9,396 nucleotides of DNA, taken from a virus. Its lineage: Duplodnaviria; Heunggongvirae; Uroviricota; Caudoviricetes. Below the pieces are notes generated by a model. It ran no database searches and was not told the DNA's origin. It worked only from the letters and a program-made list of their open reading frames with translations. Shown here one piece after another: positions 1-9,396 of this stretch. Within the stretch, counting starts at the first letter, position 1. Each line of letters begins with the position of its first letter. The position numbers and the translations under genes were made by a program. The stretch lies in the IMG/VR virus record IMGVR_UViG_2681813236_000005. One strand, given 5' to 3'.

Positions 1-1281
1 GACGGGAAAATCCTGCAGGCAGATTACAACACGCTGATGGCGGCGGCGAAAAAGGATTATGAAGCGACGCTGAAAAAGCCGAAACAGTCCGGCGTGAAGG
101 TGTCTGCGGGCGATCGTCAGGAAGACAGTGCTCATGCTGCCCTGCTGACGCTTCAGGCTGAACTCCGGACGCTGGAGAAGCATGCCGGAGCGAATGAGAA
201 AATCAGCCAGCAGCGCCGGGATTTGTGGAAGGCGGAGAGTCAGTTCGCGGTACTGGAGGAGGCGGCACAACGTCGCCAGCTGTCCGCACAGGAGAAATCC
301 CTGCTGGCGCATAAAGATGAGACGCTGGAGTACAAACGCCAGCTGGCTGCACTTGGCGATAAGGTCACGTATCAGGAGCGCCTGAATGCGCTGGCGCAGC
401 AGGCGGATAAATTCGCACAGCAGCAACGGGCAAAACGGGCCGCCATTGATGCGAAAAGCCGGGGGCTGACTGACCGGCAGGCAGAACGGGAAGCCACAGA
501 ACAGCGCCTGAAGGAACAGTATGGCGATAATCCGCTGGCGCTGAATAACGTCATGTCAGAGCAGAAAAAGACCTGGGCGGCTGAAGACCAGCTTCGCGGG
601 AACTGGATGGCAGGCCTGAAGTCCGGCTGGAGTGAGTGGGAAGAGAGCGCCACGGACAGTATGTCGCAGGTAAAAAGTGCAGCCACGCAGACCTTTGATG
701 GTATTGCACAGAATATGGCGGCGATGCTGACCGGCAGTGAGCAGAACTGGCGCAGCTTCACCCGTTCCGTGCTGTCCATGATGACAGAAATTCTGCTTAA
801 GCAGGCAATGGTGGGGATTGTCGGGAGTATCGGCAGCGCCATTGGCGGGGCTGTTGGTGGCGGCGCATCCGCGTCAGGCGGTACAGCCATTCAGGCCGCT
901 GCGGCGAAATTCCATTTTGCAACCGGAGGGTTTACGGGAACCGGCGGCAAATATGAGCCAGCGGGGATTGTTCACCGTGGTGAGTTTGTCTTCACGAAGG
1001 AGGCAACCAGCCGGATTGGCGTGGGGAATCTTTACCGGCTGATGCGCGGCTATGCCACCGGCGGTTATGTCGGTACACCGGGCAGCATGGCAGACAGCCG
1101 GTCGCAGGCGTCCGGGACGTTTGAGCAGAATAACCATGTGGTGATTAACAACGACGGCACGAACGGGCAGATAGGGCCACAGGCGCTGAAGGCTGTTTAT
1201 GACGTAGCCCGTAAGGCGGCAATGGATGTTGTGACCGGGCAGATGCGCGATGGTGGTCTGTTCTCCGGAGGTGGACGATGA
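1..1281 (+). CDS. H: Tail tape-measure protein, C-terminal part (5'-partial; the frame is open from base 1, so the gene begins upstream of the window)
   Basis: Frame 1 is open from position 1 to the TGA at 1279-1281; the listed ORF 37..1281 is only the first in-window Met. Translation is Ala/Gln/Arg/Glu-rich and coiled-coil-like, followed by a Gly-rich segment (GSIGSAIGGAVGGGASASGG...TGGFTGTGG), typical of the C-terminus of lambda-type tape-measure proteins. It sits immediately upstream of M-L-K-I-J, as in lambda. Confidence 0.88.
   Translation, partial: DGKILQADYNTLMAAAKKDYEATLKKPKQSGVKVSAGDRQEDSAHAALLTLQAELRTLEKHAGANEKISQQRRDLWKAESQFAVLEEAAQRRQLSAQEKSLLAHKDETLEYKRQLAALGDKVTYQERLNALAQQADKFAQQQRAKRAAIDAKSRGLTDRQAEREATEQRLKEQYGDNPLALNNVMSEQKKTWAAEDQLRGNWMAGLKSGWSEWEESATDSMSQVKSAATQTFDGIAQNMAAMLTGSEQNWRSFTRSVLSMMTEILLKQAMVGIVGSIGSAIGGAVGGGASASGGTAIQAAAAKFHFATGGFTGTGGKYEPAGIVHRGEFVFTKEATSRIGVGNLYRLMRGYATGGYVGTPGSMADSRSQASGTFEQNNHVVINNDGTNGQIGPQALKAVYDVARKAAMDVVTGQMRDGGLFSGGGR
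1267..1272 (+). promoter_or_regulatory. Shine-Dalgarno (GGAGGT) for M, located inside the 3' end of H
   Basis: GGAGGT lies 5 nt upstream of the ATG at 1278. Confidence 0.6.
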
Positions 1282-1607
1282 AAACCTTCCGCTGGAAAGT
1301 GAAACCCGGGATGGATGTGACATCGGCTCCTTCCGTCAGGGAGGTGCGCTTTGGTGATGGCTATTCCCAGCGTGCGCCTGCCGGGCTGAACGCTGACCTG
1401 AAAACGTACAGCGTGACGCTGTCTGTCTCCCGTGAGGAGGCCACGGCGCTGGAGTCGTTTCTGGCAGAGCACGGAGGCTGGAAGGCCTTTCTGTGGACGC
1501 CGCCTTATGGTTACAGGCAGATAAAGGTGACCTGCGCAAAATGGTCGTCGCAGGTCAGTATGTTGCGTGTTGAGTTCAGCGCAGAGTTTAAACAGGTGGT
1601 GAACTGA
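1278..1607 (+). CDS. M: Minor tail protein M (tail tip assembly)
   Basis: 109-aa ORF MKTFRWKVKPGMDV...EFSAEFKQVVN, the same length as and closely resembling lambda gpM as I recall it. Its start overlaps the H stop (ATGA) and there is a good SD upstream. Confidence 0.92.
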   Translation: MKTFRWKVKPGMDVTSAPSVREVRFGDGYSQRAPAGLNADLKTYSVTLSVSREEATALESFLAEHGGWKAFLWTPPYGYRQIKVTCAKWSSQVSMLRVEFSAEFKQVVN

Positions 1608-2305
1608 TGCAGGATATCCGGCAGGAAACACTGAATGAATGCACCCGTGCGGAGCAGTCGGCCAGCGTGGTGCTCTGGGAAATCGATCTGACAGAGGTCG
1701 GTGGAGAACGTTATTTTTTCTGTAATGAGCAGAACGAAAAAGGTGAGCCGGTCACCTGGCAGGGGCGACAGTATCAGCCGTATCCCATTCAGGGGAGCGG
1801 TTTTGAACTGAATGGCAAAGGCACCAGTACGCGCCCCACGCTGACGGTTTCTAACCTGTACGGTATGGTCACCGGGATGGCGGAAGATATGCAGAGTCTG
1901 GTCGGCGGAACGGTGGTCCGGCGTAAGGTTTACGCCCGTTTTCTGGATGCGGTGAACTTCGTCAACGGAAACAGAGACGCCGATCCGGAGCAGGAGGTGA
2001 TCAGCCGCTGGCGCATCGAGCAGTGCAGCGAACTGAGCGCGGTGAGTGCCTCCTTTGTACTGTCCACGCCGACGGAAACGGATGGCGCTGTTTTTCCGGG
2101 ACGTATCATGCTGGCCAACACCTGCACCTGGACCTATCGCGGTGATGAGTGCGGTTATCACGGTCCGGCAGTCGCGGATGAATATGACCAGCTGACGTCC
2201 GATATCACGAAGGATAAATGCAGCAAATGCCTGAGCGGCTGTAAGTTTCGCAATAACGTCGGCAACTTTGGCGGCTTCCTTTCCATTAACAAACTTTCGC
2301 AGTAA
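1607..2305 (+). CDS. L: Minor tail protein L (tail tip assembly; Cys-rich C-terminus)
   Basis: 232-aa ORF, the same length as lambda gpL. Its ATG overlaps the M stop (TGATG). A C-terminal cysteine cluster (CTWTYRGDEC...CSKCLSGC, nt 2123-2242) is present. Position between M and K matches lambda. Confidence 0.92.
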   Translation: MQDIRQETLNECTRAEQSASVVLWEIDLTEVGGERYFFCNEQNEKGEPVTWQGRQYQPYPIQGSGFELNGKGTSTRPTLTVSNLYGMVTGMAEDMQSLVGGTVVRRKVYARFLDAVNFVNGNRDADPEQEVISRWRIEQCSELSAVSASFVLSTPTETDGAVFPGRIMLANTCTWTYRGDECGYHGPAVADEYDQLTSDITKDKCSKCLSGCKFRNNVGNFGGFLSINKLSQ

Positions 2306-2309
2306 ACCC

Positions 2310-3053
2310 ATGACAGAAACAGAATCAGCGATTCTGGCGCACGCCCGGCGATGTGCGCCAGCGGAGTCGTGCGGCTTCGTGGTGAGAGCGCCGGAGGGGG
2401 AAAGATATTTTCCCTGCATGAATATTTCCGGTGAGCCGGAGGGTTATTTCCGGATGTCGCCGGAAGACTGGCTGCAGGCAGAAATGCAGGGTGAGATTGT
2501 GGCGCTGGTCCACAGCCACCCCGGTGGTCTGCCCTGGCTGAGTGAGGCCGACCGGCGGCTGCAGGTGCAGAGTGATTTGCCGTGGTGGCTGGTCTGCCTG
2601 GGCGTGATTCACAAGTTCCGCTGTGTGCCGTATCTCACCGGGCGGCGCTTTGAGCACGGAGTGACGGACTGTTACACGCTGTTCCGGGACGCTTACCATC
2701 TGGCGGGAATTGAGATGCCGGATTTTCATCGCGAGGATGACTGGTGGCGTCACGGTCAGAATCTCTATCTTGACAATATGGAGGCAACGGGTTTTTACCG
2801 TGTCGCACTGACAGAGGCGCAGCCTGGCGACGTGCTGCTGTGCTGCTTTGGTTCATCGGTGCCGAATCATGCCGCCATTTACTGCGGCGACGGCGAGCTG
2901 CTGCACCATATTCCTGAACAACTGAGTAAACGAGAGAGGTACACCGACAAATGGCAGCGACGCACACACTCCCTCTGGCGTCACCGGGCATGGCACGCAT
3001 CTGCCTTTACGGGGATTTGCAACGATTTGGCCGCCGCATCGACCTTCGTGTGA
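2310..3053 (+). CDS. K: Tail assembly protein K (JAB/MPN metalloprotease-like plus NlpC/P60 peptidase-like domains); start uncertain, alternative in-frame start at 2454
   Basis: The ORF carries a JAMM-type motif HSHPGGLPWLSEAD (nt 2511-2552) and an NlpC/P60-like Cys (DCYTLF, nt 2670-2672) with downstream His residues (nt 2868-2870, 2904-2909). The ATG at 2310 lies 4 nt after the L stop; the Met at 2454 would give a 199-aa product, matching the length I recall for the lambda K annotation. The Met at 2268 in the ORF track overlaps L and is unlikely to be the start. Confidence 0.85.
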   Translation: MTETESAILAHARRCAPAESCGFVVRAPEGERYFPCMNISGEPEGYFRMSPEDWLQAEMQGEIVALVHSHPGGLPWLSEADRRLQVQSDLPWWLVCLGVIHKFRCVPYLTGRRFEHGVTDCYTLFRDAYHLAGIEMPDFHREDDWWRHGQNLYLDNMEATGFYRVALTEAQPGDVLLCCFGSSVPNHAAIYCGDGELLHHIPEQLSKRERYTDKWQRRTHSLWRHRAWHASAFTGICNDLAAASTFV

Positions 3054-3598
3054 AAACGGGGGCTGAAGTCATCCGGGCGCTGGCCACACAGCTCCCGGCG
3101 TTTCGTCAGAAACTGAGCGATGGCTGGTATCAGATACGGATTGCCGGGCGTGATACAGGTGAAAACGAATTATCAGCCCGTCTGAATGAGCCGCTGGAAA
3201 ATGGTGCCGTGATCCACATCGTACCGCGTCTGGCGGGTGCTAAAAGTGGCGGTATTTTTCAGGCAGTGCTGGGGGCGGCGCTGATTGCGGTTGCATGGTG
3301 GAACCCTGTGGGCTGGCTGGGGGCCGCGGCTGTATCGGGTATGTATGCGGCAGGGGCCAGTATGATCCTGGGCGGTGTTGCACAGATGCTGGCCCCCAAA
3401 CCCAGAACCCCCCGAACACAGACAACGGATAACGGTAAGCAGAACACCTATTTCTCCTCACTGGATAACATGGTTGCCCAGGGCAATGTTCTGCCTGTTC
3501 TGTACGGTGAAATGCGCGTGGGGTCACGCGTGGTTTCTCAGGAGATCAGCACGGCAGACGAAGGGGACGGTGGTCAGGTTGTGGTGATTGGTCGCTGA
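2951..3598 (+). CDS. I: Tail assembly protein I (ubiquitin-like beta-grasp N-terminal domain, hydrophobic Gly/Ala-rich middle, conserved C-terminus)
   Basis: 215-aa ORF MAATHTLPLASPGMARICLYGDLQRFGRR...GDGGQVVVIGR resembling lambda gpI. It overlaps the 3' end of K by 103 nt in another frame, as in lambda. An SD-like AGAGAGG sits at 2933-2939. Confidence 0.9.
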   Translation: MAATHTLPLASPGMARICLYGDLQRFGRRIDLRVKTGAEVIRALATQLPAFRQKLSDGWYQIRIAGRDTGENELSARLNEPLENGAVIHIVPRLAGAKSGGIFQAVLGAALIAVAWWNPVGWLGAAAVSGMYAAGASMILGGVAQMLAPKPRTPRTQTTDNGKQNTYFSSLDNMVAQGNVLPVLYGEMRVGSRVVSQEISTADEGDGGQVVVIGR

Positions 3599-3616
3599 TG
3601 CAAAATATTTTATGTG

Positions 3617-3644
3617 AAACCGCCTCCGGGCGGTTTTATCGTTT
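3617..3644 (+). terminator. GC-rich hairpin followed by a T-rich tract in the I-J intergenic spacer (candidate intrinsic terminator/attenuator or mRNA-stabilising stem-loop)
   Basis: AAACCGCC (3617-3624), loop TCCG, GGCGGTTT (3629-3636) form a perfect 8-bp inverted repeat, followed by TATCGTTT. The T-tract is on the + strand only. Confidence 0.4.
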
Positions 3645-3646
3645 AT

Positions 3647-3650
3647 GGAG
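3647..3650 (+). promoter_or_regulatory. Shine-Dalgarno (GGAG) for J
   Basis: GGAG lies 8 nt upstream of the ATG at 3659. Confidence 0.55.
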
Positions 3651-3658
3651 CATGACGA

Positions 3659-6600
3659 ATGGGTAAAGGCAGCAGTAAGGGGCATACCCCGCGCGAAGCG
3701 AAGGACAACCTGAAGTCCACGCAGTTGCTGAGTGTGATCGATGCCATCAGCGAAGGGCCGATTGAAGGTCCGGTGGATGGCTTAAAAAGCGTGCTGCTGA
3801 ACAGTACGCCAGTGCTGGACAGTGAGGGGAATACCAACATCGCCGGTGTCACGGTGGTGTTCCGGGCTGGTGAGCAGGAGCAGACTCCGCCGGAGGGATT
3901 TGAATCCTCCGGCTCCGAGACGGTGCTGGGTACGGAAGTGAAATATGACACGCCGATCACCCGCACCATTACGTCTGCAAACATCGACCGTCTGCGCTTT
4001 ACCTTCGGTGTACAGGCACTGGTGGAAACCACCTCAAAGGGTGACAGGAATCCGTCGGAAGTCCGCCTGCTGGTTCAGATACAACGTAACGGTGGCTGGG
4101 TGACGGAAAAAGACATCACCATTAAGGGCAAAACCACCTCGCAGTATCTGGCCTCGGTGGTGGTGGGTAACCTGCCGCCGCGCCCGTTTAATATCCGGAT
4201 GCGCAGGATGACGCCGGACAGCACCACAGACCAGCTGCAGAACAAAACGCTCTGGTCGTCATACACTGAAATCATCGATGTGAAACAGTGCTACCCGAAC
4301 ACGGCACTGGTCGGCGTACAGGTGGATTCGGAGCAGTTCGGCAGCCAGCAGGTGAGCCGTAATTATCATCTGCGCGGGCGTATTCTGCAGGTGCCGTCGA
4401 ACTATAACCCGCAGACGCGGCAATACAGCGGTATCTGGGACGGAACGTTTAAGCCAGCATACAGCAATAACATGGCCTGGTGTCTGTGGGATATGCTGAC
4501 CCATCCACGCTACGGCATGGGGAAACGTCTTGGTGCGGCGGATGTGGACAAATGGGCGCTGTATGTCATCGGCCAGTACTGCGACCAGTCAGTGCCGGAC
4601 GGCTTTGGCGGCACGGAGCCGCGCATCGCCTGTAATGCGTACCTGACCACACAGCGCAAGGCGTGGGATGTGCTCAGTGATTTCTGCTCGGCGATGCGCT
4701 GTATGCCGGTATGGAACGGGCAGACGCTGACGTTCGTGCAGGACCGACCGTCGGATAAGGTGTGGACCTATAACCGCAGTAATGTGGTGATGCCGGATGA
4801 TGGCGCGCCGTTCCGCTACAGCTTCAGCGCCCTGAAAGACCGCCATAATGCCGTTGAGGTGAACTGGATTGACCCGAACAACGGCTGGGAGACGGCGACA
4901 GAGCTTGTGGAGGATACGCAGGCCATTGCCCGTTACGGTCGTAACGTCACGAAGATGGATGCTTTTGGCTGTACCAGCCGGGGGCAGGCACACCGCGCCG
5001 GGCTGTGGCTGATTAAAACGGAACTGCTGGAAACGCAGACCGTGGATTTCAGCGTGGGCGCAGAAGGGCTTCGCCATGTGCCGGGCGATGTTATTGAAAT
5101 CTGCGATGATGACTATGCCGGTATCAGCACCGGTGGTCGCGTGCTGGCGGTGAACAGCCAGACCCGGACGCTGACGCTCGACCGTGAAATCACGCTGCCA
5201 TCCTCCGGCACCACGCTGATAAGCCTGGTTGACGGTGAGGGCAATCCGGTCAGCGTGGAGGTTCAGTCCGTCACCGACGGCGTGAAGGTAAAAGTGAGCC
5301 GTGTTCCTGACGGTGTTGCTGAATACAGCGTATGGGGGCTGAAGCTGCCGACGCTGCGCCAGCGACTGTTCCGCTGCGTGAGTATCCGTGAGAACGATGA
5401 CGGCACGTATGCCATCACCGCCGTGCAGCATGTGCCGGAAAAAGAGGCCATCGTGGATAACGGGGCGCACTTTGACGGCGACCAGAGTGGCACGGTGAAT
5501 GGTGTCACGCCGCCAGCGGTGCAGCACCTGACCGCAGAAGTCACTGCAGACAGCGGGGAATATCAGGTGCTGGCGCGCTGGGACACGCCGAAGGTGGTGA
5601 AGGGCGTGAGCTTCCTGCTTCGCCTGACCGTGGCAGCGGATGACGGCAGTGAGCGGCTGGTCAGCACGGCCCGGACGACGGAAACAACATACCGCTTCAG
5701 GCAGCTGGCGCTGGGGCGGTACACGCTGACAGTCCGGGCAGTAAATGCCTGGGGGCAGCAGGGAGACCCGGCGTCGGTATCGTTCCGGATTGCCGCACCG
5801 GCAGCACCGTCGCGGATTGAGCTGACACCGGGGTATTTTCAGATAACGGCGGTCCCGAAACTGGCTGTATATGACCCGACGGTGCAGTTTGAGTTCTGGT
5901 TCTCGGAAAAACGGATTGCGGATATCAGGCAGGTTGAAACCACAGCCCGCTATCTTGGCACGGCGCTGTACTGGATAGCTGCCAGTATCAATATCAGGCC
6001 GGGCCATGATTATTATTTTTACGTTCGCAGTGTGAACACAGTCGGCAAATCGGCATTCGTGGAGGCTGTTGGTCAGCCGAGTGATGATGCATCCGGCTAT
6101 CTGGATTTTTTCAAAGGCGAGATAGGAAAAACCCATCTGGCTCAGGAGCTGTGGACGCAGATTGATAACGGTCAGCTGGCGCCTGATCTGGCTGAAATCA
6201 GGACGTCCATTACGGATGTCAGCAATGAAATCACACAGACCGTCAATAAGAAACTGGAAGACCAGAGTGCAGCGATCCAGCAGATACAGAAGGTTCAGGT
6301 TGATACAAATAATAACCTGAACAGCATGTGGGCTGTGAAGCTGCAGCAGATGCAGGACGGACGCCTTTATATCGCGGGTATCGGTGCCGGTATTGAGAAC
6401 ACCCCTGACGGCATGCAGAGTCAGGTGCTGCTGGCGGCGGACAGGATTGCGATGGTTAATCCTGCGAATGGCAACACAAAACCGATGTTTGTTGGTCAGG
6501 GCGATCAGATATTCATGAACGACGTGTTCCTGAAGCGCCTGACGGCCCCCACCATTACCAGCGGCGGCAATCCTCCAGCCTTTTCCCTGACGCCGGACGG

Positions 6601-7141
6601 GCGGCTGACGGCGAAAAATGCCGATATCAGCGGTAATGTAAATGCGAACTCCGGAACACTCAACAACGTCACGATTAACCAGAACTGCCGGATTCTGGGA
6701 AAACTGTCTGCCAGCCAGATTGAAGGCGATATTGTCAAAACGGTGGGAAAAGCCTTTCCGAGAAACAGCAGTTATGCCAGCGGTACGATAACGGTCACTG
6801 TGTATGATGATCAGGCTTTTGACCGTCAGATAGTGATTCCACCCGTTCTGTTTCGCGGTGGTAAGCATGAAAACTTCAACAGCAACAACCAACAGTCATA
6901 CTGGTATTCAACCTGTAAGCTGCAGGTACTGAAGAACGGACAGGAAATCTTTCACCAACCTGCGACGGATGTCAGTCGGGTATTTTCATCAGTCATTGAT
7001 ATGCCTGCAGGACACGGGCATGTCACCCTGACTTTCAATGTCTCTTCATATGGCGCTAATAACTGGACGCCAACGAGCAGTATCAGTGACCTTCTTGTTG
7101 TCGTGATGAAGAAATCCACAGCTGGTATCAGTATCAGCTGA
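3659..7141 (+). CDS. J: Central tail fibre / host specificity protein J (tail tip, receptor binding)
   Basis: 1160-aa ORF starting [42 protein letters not shown], the lambda gpJ N-terminus as I recall it. The size is typical of gpJ-family proteins, it follows I as in lambda, and it contains FN3-like modules in the middle. The TGA stop at 7139-7141 lies 2 nt before the N run, so the CDS appears complete. Confidence 0.93.
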
Positions 7142-7143
7142 AT

Positions 7144-7536
7144 NNNNNNNNNNNNNNNNNNNNNNNNNNNNNNNNNNNNNNNNNNNNNNNNNNNNNNNNN
7201 NNNNNNNNNNNNNNNNNNNNNNNNNNNNNNNNNNNNNNNNNNNNNNNNNNNNNNNNNNNNNNNNNNNNNNNNNNNNNNNNNNNNNNNNNNNNNNNNNNNN
7301 NNNNNNNNNNNNNNNNNNNNNNNNNNNNNNNNNNNNNNNNNNNNNNNNNNNNNNNNNNNNNNNNNNNNNNNNNNNNNNNNNNNNNNNNNNNNNNNNNNNN
7401 NNNNNNNNNNNNNNNNNNNNNNNNNNNNNNNNNNNNNNNNNNNNNNNNNNNNNNNNNNNNNNNNNNNNNNNNNNNNNNNNNNNNNNNNNNNNNNNNNNNN
7501 NNNNNNNNNNNNNNNNNNNNNNNNNNNNNNNNNNNN
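7144..7536. other. Assembly gap (393 consecutive N); not biological sequence
   Basis: Uninterrupted run of n characters. Confidence 0.99.
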
Positions 7537-8430
7537 GCCGGACAGGCTGCGACGTCGGCTCAGGAGGCTTCTTCCGGCGCAGGAACGGCATCAGCAAAGG
7601 CCGCTGAGGCATCAAAAAGTGCTGCCGCTGCAGAGTCCTCAAAAAGCGCGGCGGCCACCAGTGCCGGTGCCGCGAAAACGTCAGAAACGAATGCGGCAGC
7701 GTCACAACAATCAGCCGCCACGTCTGCATCCACCGCGACCTCGAAAGCGTCAGAAGCTGCCACGTCAGCCAGGGATGCGGCGGCCTCAAAAGAGGCTGCA
7801 AAATCATCAGAAACGAGCGCAGCCTCGAGCGCCGGTAGCGCAGCTTCCTCGGCAACGGCGGCAGGAAATTCCGCGAAGGCGGCAAAGACGTCTGAGACGA
7901 ACGCCAGGTCTTCTGAAACGGCAGCGGAACAGAGTGCCTCCGCAGCAGCAGGCTCAGAAACTGCTGCTGCATCATCGTCCCGTGAGGCGTCAGTTAAAGC
8001 GGAGGAGGCCTCAGCCAGTGCCACCGCCGCCGGAAAATCGGCAGAAAGTGCCGCATCGTCCGCTTCAGCAGCCACAATGAAGGCTGGCGAAGCCACTGAA
8101 CAGGCCACTGCAGCAGCGAGGTCTGCTTCCGCAGCGAGGACATCCGAGACGAACGCGAAAGCGTCGGAAACCCGTGCAGAATCTTCAGAAACGGCTGCTG
8201 TATCGTCCGCCAGTTCGGCGGCGTCATCAGCATCATCGGCGTCAGCTTCAAAAGATGAGGCGGCAAGGCTGGCGTCAGAGGCGCAGGGCAGTGCCACGAC
8301 GGCATCCGCGAAGGCGACAGAGGCAGCTGGCAGTGCGACAGCGGCAGCACAGAGCAAAAGCACGGCAGAATCCGCGGCAACGCGCGCTGAGACTGCGGCA
8401 AAACGGGCGGAGGATATTGCATCTGCCGTG
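7537..8430 (+). repeat. Imperfect in-frame repeat tract encoding Ala/Ser/Thr-rich units (KTSETNA-containing, roughly 70-85 codons apart) within the tail-fibre shaft
   Basis: Related DNA segments recur at about 7672-7700, 7881-7910 and 8137-8165 (gcgaaaacgtcagaaacgaatgcg / gcaaagacgtctgagacgaacgcc / acatccgagacgaacgcgaaagcg). Composition is strongly biased (GCN/TCN/ACN codons), and all three frames on both strands are nearly stop-free here. Confidence 0.6.
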
Positions 8431-9396
8431 GCGCTTGAGGATGCGAGCACGACGAAAAAGGGGATAGTCCAGCTCAGCAGTGCAACTAACAGTACATCTG
8501 AAACACTTGCCGCGACACCAAAGGCCGTAAAAGCCGCCTGTGAGAATGCTGAGAAACGACTGCAGAAAGATAAGAACGGTGCGGATGTCCCCGACAAAGA
8601 CACCTTTACGAAAAATATTGGTGCCTGCCGTGCCTTCGGTGGGGCCGTAAGCACAACGACAGGAGACTGGACGACCGCACAGTTTATCGGGTGGCTGGAT
8701 TCTCAGGGCGCATTTAACCATCCATACTGGATGTGCAAGGGCTCCTGGTCTTACGGTAATAATAAAATCATCACGGATACGGGCTGCGGAAATATTCATC
8801 TCGCCGGCGCTGTCATTGAGGTGATGGGGATAAAGTCAGCGATGACGATCCGCATAACCACACCGACAACATCCAGCGGAAGTGGAACGGCGAATGCGCA
8901 GTTTACCTATATTAATCATGGTGATGGTTATTCCCCTGGCTGGCGTCGTGACTACAACACGAAAAACAAGCCACCGGCCTTTGCGCTGGGAAAAACCGGG
9001 GAAACGCTCGCCGATACAGATGCCGTCGCCTGGAACCTGGACAGTGGCGCTTATTGTGCACAGGATGGTGGCGCATCATCCTTAATTCTTCATTTTAATA
9101 CAGGGGAAGGCAGCTGCCCCGCGGTCCAGTTTCGGGTGAATTACCGGAATGGCGGGATATTTTACCGCTCCGCCCGTGATGGCTATGGCTTTGAGGCGGA
9201 CTGGGAGCGTCTGTTCACGACAACGGGCGGGACCCTGGAAGGTGCTGTGGGTATCGGTGCACAGAATACGCTGGGCGGCCATTCACTTGCGCTGGGGAGG
9301 GGCGACACAGGCCTGAAACAAAACGGCGACGGTAATCTTGATGTTTACGCCGGTAACGCACGTGTAATGCGCTTTACAAACGGCAGCATTCAGGTC
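7537..9396 (+). CDS. stf: Side tail fibre protein (lambda Stf-like), internal fragment: 5' end lost in the gap, 3' end beyond the window
   Basis: The frame starting at 7537 is open for all 620 codons to 9396. It was not reported in the ORF track because it has neither an in-window start nor a stop. Translation is Ala/Ser/Thr-rich with recurring KTSETNA units, then AEDIASAVALEDASTTKKGIVQLSSATNSTSETLAATPKAVK, a conserved phage tail-fibre motif, then a Cys/Gly/aromatic-containing distal domain. Position downstream of J matches the lambda stf locus. Confidence 0.85.

Follow-up and report, generated by a model that had tools for sequence, protein, structure and literature searches.

The distal end of protein J in a lambda-like Escherichia coli prophage carries the phage 21 allele of the specificity module and probably recognises LamB

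The receptor-binding module encoded at the 3′ end of gene J in the window, by which we mean the whole 9,396-nt stretch of viral DNA analysed here, represents the phage 21 rather than the lambda allele of the J "specificity module". The best explanation, to which we assign a probability of about 0.7, is a phage-21-type module seated on a lambda-like J body, with the maltoporin LamB as the likely receptor. A preliminary description of this DNA had read the unfamiliar C-terminus as the mark of a receptor different from that of lambda, acquired by module exchange. Module exchange is real, because pieces of J have different nearest relatives, a situation already described for J (PMC6646904). The inference of a different receptor is unsupported, because phage 21, the nearest characterised relative and a carrier of the same allele, uses LamB.

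The window holds, in order, the 3′ part of H, then M, L, K, I and J, a run of 393 N, and stf, which leaves the window at its end. All six gpJ Pfam domains of J are complete and follow the order of lambda gpJ (FNIII-A_GpJ, Phage-tail_3, Ig_J, Ig_J_second, Phage_Tail_Tip and Ig_GpJ_C). The H-M-L-K-I-J gene order and 94% nucleotide identity to the lambda tail module support the placement of the protein as gpJ, and the peptides quoted in the preliminary description are present in J where it had located them. The names used below for the shaft, the beta-prism and the receptor-binding domain are taken from the lambda cryo-EM paper (PMC11101478). The features of the region are as follows.

3659..7141, plus strand: J, tip attachment / central tail fibre protein, intact in the list of open reading frames (1160 aa plus stop)
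3659..6118, plus strand: lambda-like J body, residues 1-820, ~94% nucleotide identity to lambda
6119..6478, plus strand: residues 821-940, the alpha-helical shaft and top of the beta-prism fibre in their phage-21-type form, with 28 residues inserted compared with lambda
6479..6658, plus strand: conserved island in the lower fibre, residues 941-1000, the crossover segment between modules
6659..7138, plus strand: phage-21-type specificity module, residues 1001-1160, comprising the last fibre layers and the receptor-binding domain
6731..6736, plus strand: codons of I1025 and V1026, two residues on the trimer axis directly above the receptor-binding domain
6746..7138, plus strand: Ig-like receptor-binding domain proper, residues 1030-1160 (PF12421, AF2 model, Foldseek)
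7144..7536, strand not applicable: 393-N run spanning the spacer between J and stf and the 5′ part of stf, outside the domain

The identity of the C-terminal domain is supported by both profile and structure comparisons. PF12421 (Ig_GpJ_C), which Pfam describes as [quoted passage not shown], matches residues 1030-1160 at 130.5 bits against a cut-off of 26.2, over profile positions 2-135 of 135, and PF09327 (tail tip fibre) matches residues 872-1000. PF12421 thus sits where the family has it, at the extreme C-terminus of a gpJ of ~1130-1165 aa, after the hub, FNIII/Ig and tail-tip-fibre domains. A sequence search of the PDB with the last 293 residues returned 9wca ("A8 gpJ 713", E 8e-146) and lambda gpJ (8xcj/8iyk, ~1e-96). 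Residues 990-1160 were also modelled as a monomer with AlphaFold (AF2) from 28 homologues, giving an all-beta domain with a mean pLDDT of 83.5. This monomer model is an Ig-like beta-sandwich that superposes on the solved gpJ receptor-binding domains; Foldseek placed 9wcb/9wca first (82% identity, TM 0.83-0.85) and lambda 8xck/8xcj next (49% identity, TM 0.78-0.81), with E-values of 1e-17 to 1e-22 for gpJ structures and no other match close. With E-values between 1e-38 and 1e-146 for the matches to Pfam and to gpJ structures, chance is not a concern. On this profile and model evidence, positions 6650-7141 can be taken to encode the far end of J, the trimeric tail-tip protein, in a lambda-like E. 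coli prophage, in agreement with the preliminary description, which had called this stretch the receptor-binding, host-range region.

Against lambda, J is alike and unlike in alternating blocks. A blastn comparison with lambda (NC_001416) gave 93.8% identity over 1-6155, 76.9% over 6325-6675 and no match in 6676-7143. When J was compared with lambda by a codon-aware nucleotide comparison in 20-codon steps, identity was 80-100% to ~6118, 38-63% over 6119-6478, 80-97% over 6479-6658 and 43-71% over 6659-7141. The two comparisons together place the breakpoint at 6659-6675. The preliminary description had J following lambda closely up to about 6670. The break near that position stands, but the block at 6119-6478, which went unmentioned there, has already diverged. 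At the protein level, the J body, consisting of the hub domains and two FNIII/Ig domains, is 90-100% identical to lambda per 50-residue window to residue 800 and drops over 801-820; windows within residues 801-950 are 28-58% identical. The length of 1160 aa rather than the 1132 aa of lambda J is due to the 28-residue insertion in the block 821-940.

The last 155 residues of J are 45% identical to lambda J (71/159, BLASTP) and carry three indels, at lambda ~1011-1014, 1048-1053 and 1103. The earlier remark that the sequence after ~6670 looks different from lambda is therefore borne out, and the reading that the lambda C-terminus had merely been misremembered is ruled out by the 45% identity. 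High identity over the C-terminal 160 residues, which the preliminary description had named as the outcome that would overturn its view, was looked for and is absent. Nor does the window show the indel-free, high identity to lambda J ~973-1132 that would place it with the lambda-type specificity modules, a group defined here as lambda, HK630 and DE3. The receptor-binding domain of lambda gpJ (PDB 8XCJ with LamB, and 8XCK) is nonetheless a homologous Ig-like domain, at the same position and behind the same upstream island; what separates the two is the low identity and three indels at sites that define natural J lineages. Those lineages are marked by indels at 1012, 1048-1049, 1077-1078 and 1107 (PMC6646904), and the indels of the window relative to lambda fall on three of these four sites.

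The comparison with phage 21 has a different outcome. The best phage matches to 6200-7144, at 93% nucleotide identity, are phage 21, mEp460_4F5, several "Lambda_ev" phages and PhiR phages. Phage 21 J (OL657228 CPT_21_21 / UMO75436.1) likewise has 1160 aa and the long shaft block, and is 97% identical to the J of the window overall, with 34 differences. Over residues 1006-1160 the two proteins agree at 150 of 155 positions (96.8%) without indels, the near-identity expected of a phage-21-type module. The five changes, written from window to phage 21, are S1019N, S1037G, I1060V, H1099Q and S1140T, and all are conservative (S/N, S/G, I/V, H/Q and S/T). Nucleotide identity to phage 21 is 92-100% over 6119-6478 and 90-100% over 6659-7138; over the latter interval, identity to the prophage of E. 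coli N18-04097 is 100%.

Other domain types found in phages are more distant over the last 155 residues. Compared with 97% for the phage 21 type, the domain types of Stx phages are 88%, 80-81% (equivalent to A8, discussed below) and 64-66% identical to the window, the Fels-1 domain is 46% identical, and the lambda domain is 45% identical by both tblastn and BLASTP. The 434 group stands at 43% by tblastn for 434-like phages and 45% by BLASTP for 434 itself. Phage 434 J has a homologous domain and shares the conserved island, but it has a short, lambda-type shaft; a 434-type domain is ruled out for the window by the 45% identity (73/162) and different indels. The receptor of phage 434 is reportedly OmpC, in work attributed to Hantke (1978).

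The DNA behind the phage-21-type domain has changed far more than the protein. Among the codons of residues 1006-1160 that differ from phage 21, 25 are synonymous and five non-synonymous, with dS of 0.30 and dN/dS of 0.047. Drift in the DNA has left the protein constant, and the domain is under purifying selection relative to phage 21. This pattern bears on the proposal that J is a decaying remnant of a cryptic prophage whose domain no longer functions, a proposal that could draw on the window coming from a draft assembly, as a 9.4-kb contig interrupted by an N-run, and on the adjacent stf being annotated as a pseudogene in the closest complete genome. We find such decay hardly credible, as J is intact over 1160 codons with its gpJ domains complete, the substitutions are overwhelmingly synonymous, M, L, K, I and the window's portion of H are intact, and stf is open for 620 codons to the contig end.

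How the phage-21-type module came to be joined to a lambda-like body is suggested by the island between the diverged blocks. The long shaft block is common to phage 21, Stx2a_F349 and VT1-Sakai, each with a different C-terminal domain, and J proteins that end in a lambda, 434 or Fels-1 domain have the short shaft. In protein sequence, the island at 6479-6658 hardly varies among any of the J types aligned. Within it, a 60-nt sub-patch (6539-6598) is 97% identical to lambda and 85% to phage 21, so that phage 21 lacks a lambda-like patch present in the window, and dS relative to phage 21 rises to 0.70 for residues 945-1005. From its sequence, the island has the look of a recombination junction, and the phage 21 specificity module was probably joined to the lambda-like J body by recombination within it. 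The engineered A8 and 1A2 chimeras were fused inside the same island, at lambda residue 964 (PMC11338833), and Maddamsetti et al. 2018 described lambda residues 960-1132 as an independently circulating "specificity region" (PMC6646904).

The J body also holds small patches that resemble an E. coli prophage more than they do lambda or phage 21. One example lies within the second FNIII/Ig domain, at 5819-5878 (J residues 721-740); its identity is only 80-82% with either lambda or phage 21 but 100% with the N18-04097 prophage, and a substitution cluster (L685P, R687N and T689R) lies near it. The patch and the cluster at 685-689 would represent further small-scale mosaicism within the lambda-like body.

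With the allele established, the receptor can be considered by analogy. The native receptor of phage 21 is LamB, as for lambda (bioRxiv 10.1101/2023.04.13.536812; PMC11336670), and LamB is also given as the Phi21 receptor in PMC12803456. Because phage 21 natively uses LamB and differs from the window at only five of 155 C-terminal residues, LamB is the most likely receptor of the domain described here, and we consider this assignment reasonably probable. The laboratory Phi21 used in the LamB assays carries E1071K relative to GenBank (PMC11336670); the window has E1071, as in the GenBank sequence. A single substitution in phage 21, I1025T, is enough to add OmpC use, and 12 of 12 replicate experiments yielded OmpC use through one substitution; OmpF use comes with additional J mutations (PMC11336670). 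I1025 and V1026 are shared by phage 21 and the window, which thus retains the ancestral, LamB-only state at both residues. For the PhiR lambdoid phages, some of which have a phage-21-type allele, PMC12315714 holds no receptor data.

Lambda probably shares with the domain of the window both its receptor, LamB, and its triggering mechanism. By analogy with the model derived from cryo-EM of lambda gpJ and LamB (PMC11101478), the variable loops of three copies of the domain would enter a trimeric outer-membrane porin at its extracellular mouth. The domains would then spread apart, the movement would travel up the fibre, and the tail tip would open for DNA ejection.

Four segments of the domain vary among J types or coincide with indels relative to lambda.

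6761..6781, plus strand: V1, ~residues 1035-1041 (RNSSYAS), with a 4-residue deletion relative to lambda around S1012
6872..6898, plus strand: V2, residues 1072-1080 (NFNSNNQQS), with a 5-residue insertion relative to lambda at ~1048-1053
6950..6982, plus strand: V3, ~residues 1098-1108, variable across J types
7049..7090, plus strand: V4, ~residues 1131-1144, with a 1-residue deletion relative to lambda near 1103-1107

V1 is coil in the model, contains S1037 (G in phage 21) and is predicted to be a receptor-contact loop; in lambda, OmpF use depends critically on residue 1012, where one of the lineage-defining indels also lies (PMC6646904). V2 is a loop between strands in the model, matches the 1048-1049 indel site, and is identical in phage 21 and A8. 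V3 contains H1099 (Q in phage 21) and aligns with lambda 1069-1079, including the 1077-1078 indel site. V4, modelled as a loop and a short helix, contains S1140 (T in phage 21); D1107 is the second lambda residue on which OmpF use critically depends (PMC6646904). Three of the five differences from phage 21 (S1037, H1099 and S1140) therefore lie in or beside variable segments, and S1019 is six residues from I1025, which aligns with lambda I997, one of the sites that change toward OmpF use (PMC6646904).

These positions matter for the proposal that the domain binds OmpC, alone or together with LamB, in which case it would act as the related A8 domain does, or as phage 21 with I1025T, and the consequence for host range would differ from that of lambda. 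At 82% identity, the nearest structure to have been solved is PDB 9wcb, in which A8 gpJ is in complex with OmpC from E. coli EDL933. The A8 gpJ chimera (PDB 9WCA/9WCB) combines lambda 1-964 with the C-terminus of a natural E. coli prophage, which demonstrates that this module can be transplanted onto the J body of lambda; the receptor demonstrated for the chimera is OmpC and not LamB. When tested on a lamB deletion strain, A8-type delivery reached 21 of 23 OmpC variants, counting A8, 1A2 or both (PMC11338833). Phage 21 itself is only the I1025T substitution away from OmpC use, and four of the residues at which the window differs from it (S1019, S1037, H1099 and S1140) are near that axis residue or in variable segments. 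The A8 domain has the same fold and the same length as that of the window, without indels, is 80.6% identical over the last 155 residues, and shares V2 and most of V4. The 30 differences among the 155 residues are concentrated in V1, V3 and several strands. At the 33 positions that separate phage 21 from A8, however, the window has the phage 21 residue at 28, the A8 residue at three and neither at two. The A8-like positions are 974, 984 and 1060 only, two of them outside the domain, and an assignment to the A8 type is rejected on this count. In addition, I1025 is unchanged in the window, S1037 and I1060 are common within the phage 21 allele group (cluster P0001, 741 members), and the low dN/dS argues for conserved function. 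We therefore regard OmpC binding as unlikely.

The distribution of the allele gives a further view of these residues. A look-up of the exact protein showed that the window corresponds in full to NCBI contig LONK01000048.1 (assembly GCA_001575775.1). The exact J protein is WP_061357026.1 / KXP35100.1, named "host specificity protein J [Escherichia coli]" in RefSeq. WP_061357026.1 occurs on three contigs, ten E. coli entries are found in UniRef100, and the protein belongs to a 90%-identity cluster of 34,633 members. Among 5,426 complete E. coli genomes, 1,173 records, UTI89 included, have the domain at 90-95% nucleotide identity, and the allele type occurs in about one-fifth of complete E. coli genomes. 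The exact sub-allele is rare, with at least 99% identity in three records from the 5,426 genomes, one of which, N18-04097, is at 100%. The J of N18-04097 (WP_097725089.1) is identical to that of the window in nucleotides from ~6600 to 7143 and in protein from residue 690 on, with 14 residue differences in the N-terminal 690. A scan of one genome per species with the domain found only relatives at ≤65% identity, in Shigella, E. coli, E. albertii and E. ruysiae. Within the phage 21 allele group, S1037 and I1060 are frequent variants, and S1019, H1099 and S1140 are rarer states.

The rarity of the sub-allele, three records compared with 1,173 for the common phage 21 allele, could be taken to mean that the domain recognises another surface protein, or a host-specific LamB variant closed to lambda and phage 21, with the five substitutions marking a true change of specificity, all the more as natural J lineages are thought to diversify through these loops (PMC6646904). 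The five changes are conservative and come without indels relative to phage 21, intermediate alleles exist in P0001, and the rarity is mostly a matter of synonymous divergence (25 of 30 differing codons), all of which make such a receptor very unlikely. A narrower proposal is that S1019, H1099 and S1140, on the S1037/I1060 background, shift or broaden receptor use toward OmpC or a LamB variant of the host lineage. This too is distinctly unlikely; if it were true, the S1019/H1099/S1140 sub-allele would be a natural intermediate between LamB-binding and OmpC-binding J domains.

The phage-21-type module with LamB as its likely receptor carries a methodological lesson, namely that divergence of a gpJ domain from lambda does not predict a different receptor. 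In the gpJ family, sequence distance does not track receptor and is a poor guide to it: the domains of lambda and phage 21 are only 45% identical yet both use LamB, whereas those of phage 21 and A8 are 81% identical and have different receptors. When a receptor is assigned to a prophage J protein, the guide should be the closest allele whose receptor has been determined by experiment, together with the contact residues, and not how far the sequence has moved from lambda. Builders of lambda-based delivery particles gain in this allele a further natural C-terminal module, with lambda residue 964 as a possible fusion point. As a discovery the finding has little weight and is already known: the protein is catalogued and correctly named in RefSeq, its allele is that of a classic phage whose receptor use has been dissected, close structures have been solved, and modular exchange in J is published.

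Several observations concern the remainder of the window. K is present in a long form (window 2268-3053 and 2951-3598) of 247 aa according to the gene calls of the source contig, as in the phage 21 record, which has 248 codons including the stop, and the K of the lambda reference is annotated at 199 aa only. K overlaps the start of I by ~100 nt, as it does in lambda. Two antisense ORFs, at 4589-6892 (minus strand, 767 codons) and 6505-6738, have no Pfam match. Both were rejected as genes, as they are without a Pfam match and the substitutions are synonymous in the J frame, and the former is taken as a by-product of J composition. No Rfam family match was found anywhere in the window.

Downstream of J, the 393-N run starts directly after the stop codon and is present in the public contig as well. 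It is probably an assembly gap or mask, and it hides the J terminator and the first ~150 codons of stf. The run does not preserve length, because the J-stf interval is ~530 nt in two relatives with the same flanks. On NLHR01000026.1, which has an identical J, the stop codon is followed by a 58-nt spacer (6484-6541) with a terminator-like hairpin, ggtgccagaaatggcacc, and a T-run, and then by the start of stf, MAVKISGVLKDG, with no lom between J and stf. Phage 21 likewise has stf directly after J and no lom, whereas lom is present between the two genes in lambda, 434 and Stx phages. The stf of the window (7537-9396) begins with lambda-like Ala/Ser-rich repeats (87% and 80% nucleotide identity) and continues into a distinct C-terminal part; compared with the stf of phage 21 it gave no nucleotide match. 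Because stf is lambda-like and without a phage 21 match, a second mosaic junction lies at or just after the end of J. In the N18-04097 copy, which is 98% identical, stf is annotated as a pseudogene lacking its C-terminus.
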